Below are positions 1,826-59,273 of a DNA stretch of 64,000 nucleotides, one piece after another. The translations under genes were made by a program, and so were the position numbers. Each line of letters starts with the position of its first letter. Positions within the stretch are counted from its first letter, which is position 1. Under the pieces are notes generated by a model. It saw only the letters and a program-made list of their open reading frames with translations, ran no database searches and was not told the DNA's origin. Source of the stretch: Methanobacteriota archaeon (GTDB lineage: Archaea; JAADCQ01; Methanopyri; Methanopyrales; Methanopyraceae); contig JAMOPO010000057.1 in NCBI GenBank assembly GCA_027064425.1, positions 32,001 through 96,000 on the forward strand, read 5' to 3'.

Positions 1826-2549
1826 ACCCCAGGTACACCCCTGCACCCACGGCGGCCACGGACACGAGGCCCAGCAGGATCCACCCGGTCACGTCCGAGC
1901 GAGCCCCAGCGGCCCGCTTCAGCCCCCGCGCCAGCCGCTCCATGACCTCCTTCACCTTCTTCCCCGCCTTCTCGAAGACCGACTTCACGCCCGACGCGAT
2001 CTTACTCACGGCGTGACCGATCGCCTTACCGACGGCCCTGACGGCCTCACTCACGCCCTTACCGACGCCACCTGATCCACCGCCCTTGCCTCCGCCACCG
2101 CCACCGAACAGGCGGCTCAGGACTCCACCTCCTCCTCCGGAGGATGCGCCTCCCTTACCGCCTCCTCCTCCGCCGCCACCTCCACCGCCGGCGGACGGGT
2201 GCCCGCCGGCTCCGCCACCGCCGCCCTTGCCACCACCGCCTTTCTTCCCGCCACCACCTCCCTTACCGCCTCCTCCCGAGGGCTTGCTGGGCTTGCCGTG
2301 CGCGGCGCCCCCTCCCCCGTGACCTCCCCCGCCCCGGCCCGCGGACTTGGGCGACTTCCCCTTAGGGGCCGGGGCGGGGTGTGAGGCGGGAGGGGGCGCC
2401 GCGTGGCTTCCTCCACCACCCTTTCCTCCGCCTCCGGACGACCCCGACACCGAGGGTGCCGGGGGCGGTGGCGGCAGGACCTGAGCCTCGGCCGGGATCA
2501 GCGCCGCGAGGAGGATCGCGACGATCGCCGCAGCAGCGGCACCGCGCAA
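1803..2549 (-). CDS. Gly/Pro/Lys-rich low-complexity exported protein with C-terminal membrane anchor
   Basis: TTG start after GGGGCTGA; signal-like N-terminus (AAAAIVAILLAALIPAEA), poly-Gly/GGK repeats, amphipathic helix, C-terminal TM WILLGLVSVAAVGAGVYLGF. Confidence 0.65.
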   Translation of the reverse strand: MRGAAAAAIVAILLAALIPAEAQVLPPPPPAPSVSGSSGGGGKGGGGSHAAPPPASHPAPAPKGKSPKSAGRGGGGHGGGGAAHGKPSKPSGGGGKGGGGGKKGGGGKGGGGGAGGHPSAGGGGGGGGGGGKGGASSGGGGGVLSRLFGGGGGGKGGGSGGVGKGVSEAVRAVGKAIGHAVSKIASGVKSVFEKAGKKVKEVMERLARGLKRAAGARSDVTGWILLGLVSVAAVGAGVYLGFRYDYWR

Positions 2550-3856
2550 GCTATCAGCCCCGCCAGTGGTGATAGCGCAGTCTTTACGGCTTTTCCGACC
2601 AGGAGGAGGCCGAGCCCGACCCCGAGCGCCATCGACACCAGGTTCCACGGCTCGGGCAGCTCAGGGAGCCACCCACCGAGCCACCCGCCCGACTGCCGCT
2701 GCGCCTCGCCCGCGGTGACGTCGGAGATGCGGACCGGGATCTTCCGGTACCCTTCCAGGTACTCGGTGTACAGCCGCTTGACCTCCTCGTACTCCGGGAG
2801 CAGCTCCTCGCGGACCAGCCTGGCCGCCCTCCTCGTCTGACCGCCCTCCAGCAGTGCCGCGACCCGCTCGCACTCGCCGGACATCTCCCGGAGCAGCGAG
2901 GAGATCCGGCTCGCCAGCCCGGCCAGGTGGCGCAGCAGGTCCGCGTAGTCGGGGTGCCTCCCGGCCGACTCCTCCAGGTACCGCGCCGTCCGGCTCCAGA
3001 CCTCGGCCGCCATCGCGTACCAGTGGGCGAGCTTCCGGTAGCCCTCCGGCGTGGGCGGCACGCGGCCTCCCTCGAGCGCGTACATGTACAGCGCCTCGAG
3101 CAGGGCCTTGTCGAGCTCCGTGCGGTAATTGTCGTAGTTCGGCGGCATCTCCTGGCCGACGAAGTAGTACCCGTTCTCGAAGGTGACCGCCGGGATGCCG
3201 GCTCTGGCCACGGGCGCGGTGACCCACGGTGGTGACGTGCCCGTCTGCCGCGGGTCCACGCGGGCGCCGATCACGCCCGCCAGGGCCTCACAGATCTCCA
3301 GAGCCTTGCGGTACGAGGTGGGGTTGTCGTTCCCGTGGACGGGGCCGGCCGGGATCAGGATGAACTCTGAGACGCCCCACCAGGGCCGGTGCGCGTGCAC
3401 GTCGATGAACAGCTCCGGCCGCCCGGTGATCCCGACGCCCACCTTGCGGCCGAGCTCCTCGGGGTTCAGCACGTAGTGGAGCACGTGGTGGTAGAACGTC
3501 AGCTGGCCCAGGTCGCGGGAGACCTGGTAATCTCGCCGCCGGTCGCCGGTCGTGTAGTACTCCTTCGGTATCCTGATCCATGAGACGACGAGCGTGCCCT
3601 TGAACTCGCCGGAGTACCTCACGAACCACTGCACGGCGTTGAACATGCACTGGTGGGCCTGGTGCTCGAGCGGGTGGACGCCCAGGGAGATCCAGACGAA
3701 GTGCCCGCTCCCGTTCTTCCACACGTAGTACTCGACGGGGACGCGGTAGGTCACGCCGTTCAGCGTGACCTGGTAGACCTCCTTAAGGTGCCCGTACTCC
3801 AGCGCGGTTGCTCCCGCTGGAATCAGGGTGATCGCGAGGAGGAGCGTGGGTAGCAT
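2498..3856 (-). CDS. Exported, membrane-anchored M14-like (Zn carboxypeptidase/AstE fold) protein
   Basis: Signal peptide MLPTLLLAITLIPAGATA; GVHPLE (HxxE), FIDVHAH, AVTFE motifs; helical domain and C-terminal hydrophobic segments with basic tail. Confidence 0.6.
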   Translation of the reverse strand: MLPTLLLAITLIPAGATALEYGHLKEVYQVTLNGVTYRVPVEYYVWKNGSGHFVWISLGVHPLEHQAHQCMFNAVQWFVRYSGEFKGTLVVSWIRIPKEYYTTGDRRRDYQVSRDLGQLTFYHHVLHYVLNPEELGRKVGVGITGRPELFIDVHAHRPWWGVSEFILIPAGPVHGNDNPTSYRKALEICEALAGVIGARVDPRQTGTSPPWVTAPVARAGIPAVTFENGYYFVGQEMPPNYDNYRTELDKALLEALYMYALEGGRVPPTPEGYRKLAHWYAMAAEVWSRTARYLEESAGRHPDYADLLRHLAGLASRISSLLREMSGECERVAALLEGGQTRRAARLVREELLPEYEEVKRLYTEYLEGYRKIPVRISDVTAGEAQRQSGGWLGGWLPELPEPWNLVSMALGVGLGLLLVGKAVKTALSPLAGLIACAVPLLRRSSRSSSRR

Positions 3857-3892
3857 CCGCGGTCCCCCGGGCGCGGTGAGGGAGGAAAGTAA

Positions 3893-4034
3893 TGTACCCG
3901 GCGGCCAGGTCGCCCGGTCACGGAACGGCGTCACGGCCTACTCCCGGGCGTGACGGGTGGCTGTACCGGGAGCGTGACAGCGGGGTTCATCGCGCGGTGA
4001 ACACCGCCTCACCCCGCCGGGGGCCCCGACCGGC
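3893..4034 (-). ncRNA. Two-hairpin box H/ACA pseudouridylation guide RNA
   Basis: Two hairpins, each with lower stem, pocket, 7-8 bp upper stem and tandem-GA K-turn. ACA lies 14 nt (3964-3962) and 15 nt (3895-3893) from the upper stem. A pyrimidine tract follows; TTATAGAA is upstream at 4054-4047. Confidence 0.75.
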
Positions 4035-4074
4035 CGGAGCCTCGCCTTCTATAACTTCTCGGGGGTGCACGTGC

Positions 4075-5349
4075 GTGGTCGTGGTGAAGGAGGGTGAGTA
4101 CGCGATCCGGGACCCCTCCCTGGCGCCCAAGGGTCGGGACATGATCGAGTGGGCCCGCGACCACATGCCCGTGCTGCAGCTCATCCGGGAGCGGTTTGAG
4201 GAGGAGCGGCCGCTGGAGGGCGTCACGATCGGGATGACCCTGCACCTGGAGGCGAAGACGGCGGTCCTCGTGGAGACGCTGATGGCGGGCGGCGCGGAGG
4301 TGGCGATCACGGGCTGCAACCCGCTGTCGACGAAGGACGAGGTGGCGGCGGCGCTGGTGGAGGAAGGCGTGCACGTGTACGCGTGGCGCGGTGAGACTCG
4401 GGAGGAGTACTACGAGAACATCGACCGGGTGCTGAGCCACGAGCCGGACATCGTCGTGGACGATGGGGCGGACTGCATCACGCGGTTGCACCTGAAGTTC
4501 CCGGAGCTGGCCGAGGAGGTCATCGGCGGGACGGAGGAGACGACGACCGGCGTGCAGCGGCTCCGGGCCATGCACCGGGACGGGGAGCTGAAGTTCCCGG
4601 TGATCGCGGTGAACGACGCGAAGACGAAGTACCTCATGGACAACCGGTACGGGACGGGCCAGAGCGCGCTGGACGGGCTGATGCGGGCGACGAACGTGCT
4701 GATCGCCGGGAAGACCGTGGTCGTGGCGGGCTACGGCTGGTGCGGTCGGGGCATCGCGCGGCGGGCGCGGGGCCTGGGCGCGGACGTGATCGTGGTGGAG
4801 GTGGACCCGATCAAGGCGATGGAGGCCGTGTTCGACGGGTTCCGGGTCATGCCGATGGACAAGGCGGCGGAGGAGGGTGACATCTTCATCACGGCGACCG
4901 GCAACCGGGACGTGATCCGCGGCGAGCACATCGAGAAGATGAAGGACGGGGCCATCCTCGCCAACGCCGGCCACTTCGACGTGGAGATTGACAAGGAGTA
5001 CCTGGAGGAGAACTGCGAGGAGAAGATCGAGCGGCGCGGGGGCCTGGTCACGGAGTACCGCATGCCGGACGGGCGTCGGATCTACCTCGTCGCGGAGGGC
5101 CGGCTCGTGAACCTCGCGGCGGGCGAGGGGCACCCCATCGAGATCATGGACATCAGCTTCGCCCTGCAGGCGCTCTCGATCGAGCGGCTCGTGCAGGAGG
5201 GCGAGTCGATGGAGCCCGGCGTGTACGACGTCCCGTCCGAGATCGACCGGAAGGTCGCCGAGCTGAAGCTCGAGTCGATGGGCGTCGAGCTCGAGGAGCT
5301 CACGCCGGAGCAAAAGGAGTACCTGAGGAGCTGGAAGGAGGGCACGTGA
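4075..5349 (+). CDS. ahcY: Adenosylhomocysteinase / S-inosylhomocysteine hydrolase
   Basis: [48 protein letters not shown]; GTG start after GGGGGTG. Confidence 0.96.
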
Positions 5350-26991: not shown

Positions 26992-27107
26992 TGGTGCCGG
27001 GGCCGGGATTTGAACCCGGGACCTCGGGGTATCCCAGGCCCGTGTCACCCTCACGGGGTCATCGGGCCCTATGAGCCCCGCGCTCTACCAGGCTAAGCTG
27101 CCCCGGC
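26992..27107 (-). tRNA. Elongator tRNA-Met(CAT) with 39-nt intron (27031-27069), encoded CCA, C at position 8
   Basis: GCCGGGG acceptor stem, GGTTCAAATCC T-arm, CTCATA loop; BHB motif CTCA/TGGG with 3-nt bulges. Confidence 0.93.
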
Positions 27108-29896: not shown

Positions 29897-29974
29897 GGGC
29901 CCGCAGCTCAGTCCGGTCAGAGCGCGGGGCTCATAACCCCGTGGTCCCGGGTTCAAATCCCGGCGGGCCCACCA
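29897..29974 (+). tRNA. tRNA-Ile2(CAT) (agmatidine type), encoded CCA, C at position 8
   Basis: GGGCCCG acceptor stem typical of archaeal tRNA-Ile; CTCATAA loop; GGTTCAAATCC; TTTTTA promoter-like element at 29862. Confidence 0.85.
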
Positions 29975-40098: not shown

Positions 40099-40302
40099 GT
40101 GCCTAAGCGCCTCCGCAGGTGCAAAGAGTGCGGGGAGTACACCCTACAGCGGGACAAGTGCCCGCACTGCGGCGGAGAGGTGGAGGTGCCTCATCCCCAC
40201 CGATTCTCGCCGGAGGATCCGTACGGCAAGTACCGGAGGAGATTAAAAAAGAAGATCTGGATCGAGAAGTTCGGGCCTCCCCCGGAGGGGGAGGGGGACT
40301 GA
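40099..40302 (+). CDS. nop10: H/ACA RNP protein Nop10
   Basis: RRCKECGEYTL..KCPHCGG...PHP.RFSPEDPYGKYRR. Confidence 0.94.
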   Translation: MPKRLRRCKECGEYTLQRDKCPHCGGEVEVPHPHRFSPEDPYGKYRRRLKKKIWIEKFGPPPEGEGD

Positions 40303-58081: not shown

Positions 58082-59158
58082 GTGGTCGACTGGCGGGAAA
58101 TACCGGTGAGGCCGACGCCGGTCGCGGTAAAGAAGCTGAAGGAGGCGTGTCCGACGGTTGAGTCGCTGCCGTTCGACCCGATCCCTAAGCGGCTGGAGGA
58201 CGGGGTGAACCCGAGCCCGGTGTGCGGGTTCAGCCGGGCGCACCCCATGTTCTTCGGGGACGGGCCGAAGGAGTCGCACTGGCGGGAGGGGCTGTGGTCG
58301 GAGCTGGAGGTGTTCCTGAGGGTTCGCCCGCGGAAGCTCCACTGGGATGAGGTGATCCTCGGGTTTCTCGACCTGGTGGGGGCCGTCTGCCGCCGGGCTA
58401 GTGAGTTCTTTCTGGAGCCCTCGATGGGGGAGGCGCTGCGCGTTTGCACGGCGCTCAGGATGCTCGGGAGGCTGTGCCAGGAGGGTGAGTCGAAGGGCGT
58501 CTCGAGCGGCACCCTGAGCGAGGCTCTCGAGGTCATCTCTGGGGTGCTGGAGGTCGAGCTGGACTTCCTAACCTCGAGCCAGTCCCTGCTGCTGTCGACC
58601 GGGCTGCTGGACGCGTTCAAGCGGTGTCTGCCGCTGCGTCCCTCGTGCTGGGTTGAGTTCGCCCTGCAGTGTCACGCCTGCGCGCACCGCGGCGTGAAGG
58701 CCGAGGACGTGCTCGAGGACGTGGAGGAGCTGGGGGTGGAGGATGCCGAGGAGTGCCGCGGCCGCGTTGAGCGCGCCGTCGACCTGGCGGTGAGGGGGCT
58801 CGAGGACCGGATCGGCGAGCTGGTGGGCCGGTACCGCCTGAGCGAGCTGATGAGCATGGACGTGGAGGAGTTCGCGGAGCGAGTCTCCGAGACCCTGGCC
58901 GACGCGCTGGCGCTGCACGCTAAGCCGGTGGTCGCGCTGGTGGAGGAGCCCGAGGGAATAGTGGAACGATGGTTGTCCGTGCCGGAGGATATTGAGGTCG
59001 ACGACGTTAAGGTGCCGCCCGGCGAGTACGATCCGATGTGGAGGGACGCGGAGCGCACCGAGCGGGCCTTCGCCAGGGTTGACGTGAAGGAGCTGGTGAA
59101 GCGGAGGTTCCGGAAGTTAATCGAGGAGATCCGGGAGGCGCTCGGGTCCGGCCGATGA
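58082..59158 (+). CDS. Hypothetical protein
   Basis: 358-aa ORF with host codon bias, helical; no recognised motif. Confidence 0.65.
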   Translation: MVDWREIPVRPTPVAVKKLKEACPTVESLPFDPIPKRLEDGVNPSPVCGFSRAHPMFFGDGPKESHWREGLWSELEVFLRVRPRKLHWDEVILGFLDLVGAVCRRASEFFLEPSMGEALRVCTALRMLGRLCQEGESKGVSSGTLSEALEVISGVLEVELDFLTSSQSLLLSTGLLDAFKRCLPLRPSCWVEFALQCHACAHRGVKAEDVLEDVEELGVEDAEECRGRVERAVDLAVRGLEDRIGELVGRYRLSELMSMDVEEFAERVSETLADALALHAKPVVALVEEPEGIVERWLSVPEDIEVDDVKVPPGEYDPMWRDAERTERAFARVDVKELVKRRFRKLIEEIREALGSGR

Positions 59159-59210
59159 GGAGCCCACCCCGGTGCCGACGGGAGATGGGGAGGGGCTAGG
59201 GTACCGAGGC
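59151..59210 (+). ncRNA. Box C/D guide sRNA candidate
   Basis: GCC-G-ATGAGGA-GCCCACCCCGGTG-CCGA-CGGGAG-ATGGGGA-GGGGCTAGGGTA-CCGA-GGC; box C contains the upstream stop codon. Confidence 0.8.
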
Positions 59211-59272
59211 GCCTCGGCCCCCGTCCAACTCGTCATCGGGCCCCTCAGACTCGGGGTAGGATCCTCATCGGC
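59211..59272 (-). ncRNA. Box C/D guide sRNA candidate
   Basis: GCC-G-ATGAGGA-TCCTACCCCGAGT-CTGA-GGGGCCCG-ATGACGA-GTTGGACGGGGG-CCGA-GGC. Confidence 0.85.
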
Positions 59273-59273
59273 C

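Follow-up and report, generated by a model that had tools for sequence, protein, structure and literature searches.

Archaeal box H/ACA guide RNAs follow a compact set of published rules. These include an H2 helix of 5-6 bp, a distance of 14 or 15 nt between the ANA box and the target residue, and a 3' guide that outweighs the 5' guide, as set out in PMC2377435. A second account gives a spacing of 14-16 nt and places the K-turn 5-6 nt above the pocket (PMC7991803). For M. kandleri, small-RNA sequencing by Su et al. (2013; PMC3695527) yielded 126 C/D and 6 H/ACA sRNAs. The H/ACA sRNAs are listed in Supplementary Table S1 of that paper, and the main-text passages on them name no targets. Apart from this study, full-text literature searches returned no paper on Methanopyrus H/ACA RNAs.

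The locus described here lies in a 64,000-nt stretch of a Methanobacteriota archaeon genome. This whole stretch is referred to as the window, and coordinates are given within it unless another sequence is named. Window positions 4030..3893 on the minus strand, a stretch of ~138 nt that lies upstream of the divergently transcribed ahcY, very probably encode an archaeal box H/ACA guide sRNA with two motifs. In a preliminary description of this DNA, the minus strand upstream of ahcY had been read as an H/ACA guide with two K-turn hairpins; anatomy, conservation and covariation all agree with that assignment.

Anatomy of the element and its neighbouring genes

In both hairpins of window 4030..3893 (minus strand), a pocket separates the lower from the upper stem, a GA/GA K-turn sits above the upper stem, and an ACA box stands 3' of the lower stem. 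Read along the minus strand, hairpin 1 runs GUCGGG-GCCCCC-GGCGGGGU-GA-(GGCGGU GUUC ACCGC G C)-GAU-GA-ACCCCGCU-GUCACGCU-CCCGGU-ACA-GCC. Hairpin 2 follows directly after this GCC as ACCCG-UCA-CGCCCGG-GA-(22 nt)-GA-CCGGGCG-ACCUGGCCGC-CGGGU-ACA. The individual features and the flanking genes are listed below.

4075..5349, plus strand: ahcY (S-adenosylhomocysteine hydrolase), divergent; start near GTG 4075, not ATG 3892
4049..4054, minus strand: AT-rich, TATA-like TTATAG, 18 nt before the first lower stem begins
4025..4030, minus strand: hairpin 1 lower stem, 5' strand GUCGGG; pairs with 3970-3965
4019..4024, minus strand: hairpin 1 5' pocket strand GCCCCC; 5' guide CCCCC (4023-4019), complementary to the GGGGG 3' of the predicted 23S target
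4011..4018, minus strand: hairpin 1 upper stem, 5' strand GGCGGGGU; five of eight pairs with double-sided changes
3987..4010, minus strand: K-turn 1, with GA (4010-4009), GA (3988-3987) and the 3-nt bulge GAU (3991-3989)
4008-3992, minus strand: K-turn 1 C-stem and loop, GGCGGU-GUUC-ACCGC-G-C; covaries, with three double-change pairs
3979..3986, minus strand: hairpin 1 upper stem, 3' strand ACCCCGCU, from sequence and covariation analysis
3971..3978, minus strand: hairpin 1 3' pocket strand GUCACGCU; 3' guide GUCAC (3978-3974), complementary to the GUGAC 5' of the predicted 23S target U
3965..3970, minus strand: hairpin 1 lower stem, 3' strand CCCGGU; alternative partner GCCGGG 3902-3897
3962..3964, minus strand: ACA box 1, 14 nt past the upper stem; invariant in 6/6 genomes
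3954..3958, minus strand: hairpin 2 lower stem, 5' strand ACCCG; conserved part CCCG alone, in 5/6 genomes
3951..3953, minus strand: hairpin 2 5' pocket UCA; 5' guide (C)GUC, including G3954 (and C3955), pairing with 16S GAC(G)
3944..3950, minus strand: hairpin 2 upper stem, 5' strand CGCCCGG; 95.2% of cells paired
3918..3943, minus strand: K-turn 2, with GA (3943-3942), an irregular C-stem and loop (3941-3923), the bulge CGU (3922-3920) and GA (3919-3918)
3911..3917, minus strand: hairpin 2 upper stem, 3' strand CCGGGCG, from sequence and covariation analysis
3901..3910, minus strand: hairpin 2 3' pocket strand ACCUGGCCGC; 3' guide CCUGGCC (3909-3903), complementary to 16S GGCCAGG
3896..3900, minus strand: hairpin 2 lower stem, 3' strand CGGGU, from sequence and covariation analysis
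3893..3895, minus strand: ACA box 2, 15 nt past the upper stem and 14 nt past the A.A closing position
2498..3856, minus strand: downstream gene on the same strand as the element, ATG 3856; no Pfam family; signal-peptide-like N-terminus (by eye)

The two hairpins share a common layout. One closing position (G.U in hairpin 1 and A.A in hairpin 2) is followed by six pairs, above which come one further position, the tandem G.A pairs, a 3-nt bulge (GAU and CGU, respectively) and a short C-stem. Both ACA boxes are flush with the lower stems, at CCCGGU and CGGGU, and are aligned in all six genomes of the genus; in G004, the most diverged of these, two ACAs overlap at the second box. Alignments give the same ACA spacings of 14 and 15 nt in the orthologues. 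The upper stems, GA..GA pairs, ACA boxes and both spacings named in the preliminary description are all found at the place it gave. Its lower stem for hairpin 1, GGGGC/GCUCC, can be formed in the window but is broken in the orthologues, where GUCGGG/CCCGGU is the conserved stem. The pockets of hairpin 1 are therefore GCCCCC and GUCACGCU.

The element is separated by 44 nt from the ahcY start and by 38 nt from the downstream gene. It is masked by a 485-codon ORF (3892-5349, plus strand) that extends ahcY upstream. ATG 3892 does open a frame continuous with ahcY in the window, as would be seen if the stretch coded for an N-terminal extension of AhcY, but the Pfam AdoHcyase match begins only at residue 69 of the 485-aa ORF and orthologues align from GTG 4075. 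In three of the six genomes the extension is broken, with an in-frame stop within the element and no start codon upstream of the conserved ahcY start. Within the stretch, close relatives differ by 1-nt indels, and the changes compensate for RNA pairing. A coding extension is thus scarcely credible, and the longer ORF is fortuitous. Among named AhcY loci, the closest come from MAGs that bear the labels Methanobacteriota (94%, 93%) and Methanopyri (83%).

An AT-rich element lies at a similar distance from the first stem in five of six orthologues, and ~10 nt further away in G004. Judged by its sequence, TTATAG is a possible promoter element, possibly shared with the divergent ahcY, which may itself be leaderless and transcribed from a bidirectional promoter in common with the sRNA. 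Archaeal transcription typically starts ~26 nt from the TATA centre. The TATA-like element lies close enough for transcription to begin, possibly, at the first stem strand or within it. On the other strand the hexamer reads CUAUAA and lies ~26 nt upstream of ahcY GTG 4075; GGGGGUG at 4061-4067 is a possible Shine-Dalgarno match.

RNA data from four size-fractionated runs (X1-X4; three samples from one study) were compared with the congener stretch L004:1200-2000. The congener orthologue was contained without differences in RNA contigs of 585-942 nt, spanning 561-597 of the 801 nt. These contigs cover positions 1200/1240 to 1792-1800 at a mean word depth of 52.6-67.1, and beyond ~1796 the depth is 0 or 4.6. 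Since each contig carries a single depth and crosses both neighbouring genes, the contigs show neither a discrete sRNA nor its ends nor its strand.

Comparison of the window with Rfam, which the preliminary description had suggested, gave no matching H/ACA family at gathering score. At E up to 10, the sole match within 3700-4250 was a chance miRNA match outside the element. Elsewhere in the window Rfam identifies tRNA genes at 26995-27107 (minus strand) and 29897-29971 (plus strand), the first of which is 113 nt long, suggesting an intron.

Predicted rRNA targets and protein partners

From knowledge of the family, the K-turn of each hairpin would bind L7Ae, and the lower stem together with the ACA box would bind Cbf5-Nop10-Gar1. 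The internal loop would open so that its strands could base-pair with the rRNA flanking an unpaired U-N, and the U would thereby reach the active site of Cbf5 and be converted to pseudouridine. Hairpin 1 (CCCCC and GUCAC) would address the U in 23S 5'-GUGAC-U-A-GGGGG-3', and hairpin 2 (CCUGGCC and (C)GUC) the first U of 16S 5'-GGCCAGG-U-U-GAC(G)-3'. We infer transcription, RNP assembly and the rRNA modifications alike. The protein partners are encoded, all above curated cut-offs: Cbf5 (480.8 bits), Nop10 (84.2), Gar1 (31.9) and L7Ae (102.4). The Nop10 gene is located in the window at 40108-40254 (plus strand), ~36 kb from the guide RNA.

No rRNA was found in the window's genome assembly (57 contigs). 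Congener rRNAs were used because the genome's own rRNA is not assembled: 23S from G001, G002, G004 and G005, and 16S from G001-G004. Every U was scanned for contiguous Watson-Crick pairing of both pocket strands around U-N. For hairpin 1 the best site was 23S GUGAC-U-A-GGGGG, a short duplex of 5+5 pairs (next best 6-7), which is unique in each of the four congener 23S sequences. It is located at 1972-1974 (congener numbering); in alignment with E. coli the target U corresponds to C1761 and stands just before the conserved GACUGUUUA(U/A)UAAAA. The site is also present in the 23S of another archaeal family, and a further family has A there.

For hairpin 2 the best site was 16S GGCCAGG-U-U-GACG, with 7+4 pairs, again unique in 4/4 congener 16S sequences. 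The last one or two of these pairs draw on bases of the hairpin's own short lower stem: the 5' side offers two pocket bases, or 3-4 pairs if the 4-5-bp lower stem opens. The site is at 990-993 (congener numbering), where the U is the first loop base of the helix 33 region hairpin; we give the location as helix 33 region only, because the E. coli position assigned by MAFFT (~1020) falls in a variable region. When the 16S and 23S of one congener were shuffled 2000 times with dinucleotides preserved, the best score equalled or exceeded the observed one in 1.05% of shuffles for hairpin 1 and 0.25% for hairpin 2 (P 0.0105 and 0.0025). Most likely, this RNA would direct one pseudouridine in 23S and one in 16S. 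The second U was also tried as the hairpin 2 target, with the 3' guide counted from the base beside the 6-bp stem; this gave no site with at least three pairs on both sides.

The hairpin 2 target had been predicted letter for letter in the preliminary description, and GGCCAGGUUGAC occurs once in each of the four congener 16S sequences. The motif predicted for hairpin 1, GUGAC-U-N-GGGG, is likewise found once per congener 23S (4/4), but not at the proposed place before GUGAAAGGCCAAUC; in the congeners its context is GUGACUAGGGGGGGCC, just 5' of GACUGUUUAAUAAAA. Corroboration of this target had been sought in a C/D guide elsewhere in the window. The guide in question is indeed present in a C/D box-like RNA at 59273-59210 (minus strand), but the best rRNA complement of its D' guide is an 11-nt stretch of 23S at ~1641-1651 in the congeners, CUCGGGGUAGG, which precedes the hairpin 1 site by ~325 nt. 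None of eight congener rRNA sequences contained the merged target GUGACUCGGGGUAGGA, assembled from both guides, and the sequence before GUGAAAGGCCAAUC differs. With its 23S match ~325 nt away and the merged string absent, the C/D guide provides no independent corroboration. The region 59150-59273 of the window holds two convergent C/D-box-like sRNAs, both starting with GGCCGAUGAGGA, the plus-strand RNA at 59150 and the minus-strand RNA at 59273. A perfect palindrome, CCGAGGCGCCUCGG (59204-59217), marks their meeting point, and their boxes read CCGAUGA / CUGA / CGAUGA / CCGA.

Within the window's own genome, a complement to hairpin 1 of 13 pairs (7+6) was found at G000:C29:9916 (plus strand; locus L026:1517). 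This complement runs antisense to the ORF of a predicted membrane protein, and in both closest relatives having the region the target U and its flanks are changed. On these two grounds it was rejected as a target and judged a chance match. A second own-genome match to hairpin 1 (6+4) is at C24:370 (minus strand), where there is no Rfam family.

The covariance model R1 of the element also has a second match in the same genome, at G000:C52:73717-73852 (minus strand; locus L024:1501-1636), scoring 31.9 bits. This locus has the same geometry with different pockets, UCUGGGUC and CCGGAGGG. Its lower stem CCCCCG/CGGGGG is flush with an ACA, seven pairs and a U.U lie under a GA/GA K-turn, and the spacing to the ACA is 14 nt. 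The best rRNA complements, 23S U2887-2889 (7+4) and 16S U8 (6+5), need G.U pairs. It is probably another H/ACA sRNA.

These observations bear on whether the element might bind L7Ae through its K-turns for some purpose other than guiding pseudouridylation, for example as the leader of the downstream secreted-protein gene, as a regulator of that gene, or as an antisense or promoter-occluding RNA for ahcY. Its placement 38 nt upstream of a same-strand gene and 44 nt from the ahcY start would suit such a role, as would the RNA-library contigs that continue through the element into the downstream gene. That role nevertheless leaves unexplained two ACA boxes at 14-15 nt, the invariant pocket bases and the unique bipartite complements in 16S and 23S, and the second locus repeats the geometry elsewhere with different pockets. 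We therefore hold it to be very improbable and retain the element as a pseudouridine guide.

Conservation, covariation and alternative pairing

R1 matched all six genomes of the genus and none of 35 genomes of other archaeal genera. Scores ranged from 124 to 155 bits in five genus genomes, the window's included, and dropped to 49.5 bits (E 5.9e-6) in the diverged G004. By BLAST, the stretch was found in four of the five other genus genomes and in 0/25 further archaea. All six copies lie between ahcY, at 83-100% identity, and one common downstream gene, at 62-78% in the five other genomes. The structure, conservation of which had been put forward as a check on the guide, is recovered by R1 in 6/6 genomes.

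Covariation was assessed in a model-fitted alignment, which leans towards the structure. There, 92.0% of 212 cells form standard pairs, compared with 37-56% when the 3' partners are slid. Double-sided changes are seen in 10 of 36 pairs, a count equalled by 1/500 shuffles, and the covariation score was reached by none of 500. RNAalifold applied to a structure-blind MAFFT alignment recovered both upper stems and the K-turn stems, and did not recover the two lower stems. The covariation signal is weak when only the five close sequences are used. Folding energy is uninformative in this 74% G+C stretch, showing no significant difference from shuffles (z -0.39, -0.83 and +0.52).

Individual helices contribute differently. 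The clearest covariation is in the upper stem of hairpin 1, which is GGCGGGG/CCCCGC(U) here and GAGCCGG/CCGGCUC in G004. The hairpin 1 lower stem is paired in 97.1% of cells with one double-change pair, its outermost pair being A-U in three genomes, G-C in two and G.U in one. In K-turn 1, GA and UGA are invariant (6/6). The top pair of the hairpin 2 upper stem is G-C in four genomes and unpaired in two. The hairpin 2 lower stem, CCCG/CGGG, is 4-5 bp long and paired in 85.7% of cells, with no covariation.

Guide positions are more constant than the remaining columns: 19 of 20 are invariant across the six genomes, versus 56 of 122 other columns (Fisher P 1.8e-5). The CCCCC and CCUGGCC guides and the GUCA of hairpin 2 are invariant in 6/6, and the GUCAC guide is kept in 5/6, while outside guide positions the most diverged copy retains 59% identity. 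The exception is G004, in which GUCAC is GUCUC and gives a U.U mismatch with that genome's own unchanged 23S. In the same copy, the hairpin 1 lower stem has a C.A mismatch and the GA/GA of K-turn 2 is AA/GC, with a clean 8-bp C-stem GGUGGUGG/CCACCGCC and a GAU bulge.

The lower stems also admit another pairing, in which CCCGGU (3970-3965) joins GCCGGG (3902-3897). Only hairpin 2 would then amount to a full H/ACA motif, its basal stem 6-7 bp long and its 5' pocket enlarged, and hairpin 1 would be a 5' K-turn hairpin lacking a lower stem of its own; or the RNA might switch between folds. RNAalifold on the structure-blind alignment reports this long-range helix, paired in 36/36 cells with two compensatory pairs, but both of these come from G004 alone. 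Cross-pairing of the lower stems is expected in any case, because both use nearly the same words. With the equivalent of the CCCGGU/GCCGGG helix, the ACA spacing of 15 nt and the whole 3' guide are preserved in G004. The TATA-like hexamer lies 18 nt before GUCGGG, so that a start ~26 nt from its centre would fall inside this strand, which speaks for the alternative fold. However, GUCGGG is conserved and the sequence just upstream of it is not, and the outer pair covaries with the 3' strand of hairpin 1. Long-range pairing also leaves unexplained the conserved guides of hairpin 1 and its 14-nt ACA spacing, which fit a unique 23S site. This alternative fold, or a switch into it, is in our judgement decidedly unlikely. 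For the basal helix of hairpin 2 by itself, the data fit both its own CCCG/CGGG and CCCGGU/GCCGGG, and the choice is ambiguous.

A further reading takes the two guide modules to be structurally coupled. Because the lower stems share CCCGG/CCGGG words, the 3' strand of hairpin 1 can pair either with its own 5' strand or with the 3' end of hairpin 2. The RNA could then alternate between two forms, one with both motifs and one with a single motif on the long basal helix, and in G004 hairpin 1 might be decaying as hairpin 2 takes over its strand. The guide mismatch and weakened stem of hairpin 1 in G004, along with the two compensatory changes for hairpin 2, are the features behind this proposal. 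We regard such coupling as unlikely; if true, it would offer a snapshot of multi-motif H/ACA RNAs losing or gaining modules.

Relation to described H/ACA guide RNAs

Read as a two-motif guide, the locus is a guide RNA gene so far missing from the annotation of Methanopyri genomes, and its recognition removes a tempting but excessive extension of ahcY. It also provides two testable predicted pseudouridine sites, one in 23S near E. coli 1761 and one in the 16S helix 33 loop, in the ribosome of a Methanopyrus-like organism that lives at about 100 °C or hotter. In the genomes searched the family is confined to the genus, Rfam does not contain it, and the R1 model could seed a new entry. Understanding of how H/ACA RNPs work is unchanged, and the biology is ordinary.

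The anatomy conforms to published archaeal H/ACA motif rules. Between K-turn and pocket lies the 6-bp upper stem, flanked by a closing position on the pocket side and a further position beneath the GA pairs. With the closing pair included, the stem below the K-turn has seven pairs, more than the 5-6 reported for Pyrococcus.

The closest described relatives in form are the multi-motif H/ACA sRNAs of Pyrococcus, such as Pab35 and Pab105 with two motifs each (Muller et al. 2008, PMC2377435), in which the ANA is flush with the lower stem as it is here. As described there, the two systems also have in common a K-turn above the pocket, a distance of 14 or 15 nt between the target U and the ACA, two-part complementarity to rRNA flanking an unpaired U-N, and a 3' guide stronger than the 5' guide. 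They differ in their lower stems, which are 6 and 4-5 bp here and at least 7 bp in the Pyrococcus search descriptor (PMC2377435). Unlike the Pyrococcus sRNAs, the element has an extra closing position in the stem below the K-turn. Sequence homology with them was not detectable, given that Rfam returned no family match and model R1 found none beyond the genus.

In Pyrobaculum, atypical H/ACA-like sRNAs, reportedly described by Bernick et al. in 2012, are said to be K-turn hairpins that guide with an incomplete pocket, which makes them pertinent to the alternative fold. In the present RNA neither ACA box and neither pocket strand is missing, and all are conserved. In Haloferax volcanii, sR-h45 likewise consists of two stem-loops, each guiding rRNA pseudouridylation by Cbf5 (PMC7075261). 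According to that report both of its hairpins act on 23S, whereas one 23S and one 16S target are predicted here, and the sites of the two RNAs differ. The orthologue in the congener G002 (G002:C1:356812-356952, minus strand) may be one of the six H/ACA sRNAs counted for M. kandleri in PMC3695527. The RNA is thus a further H/ACA guide of a familiar type, possibly already listed for one congener.
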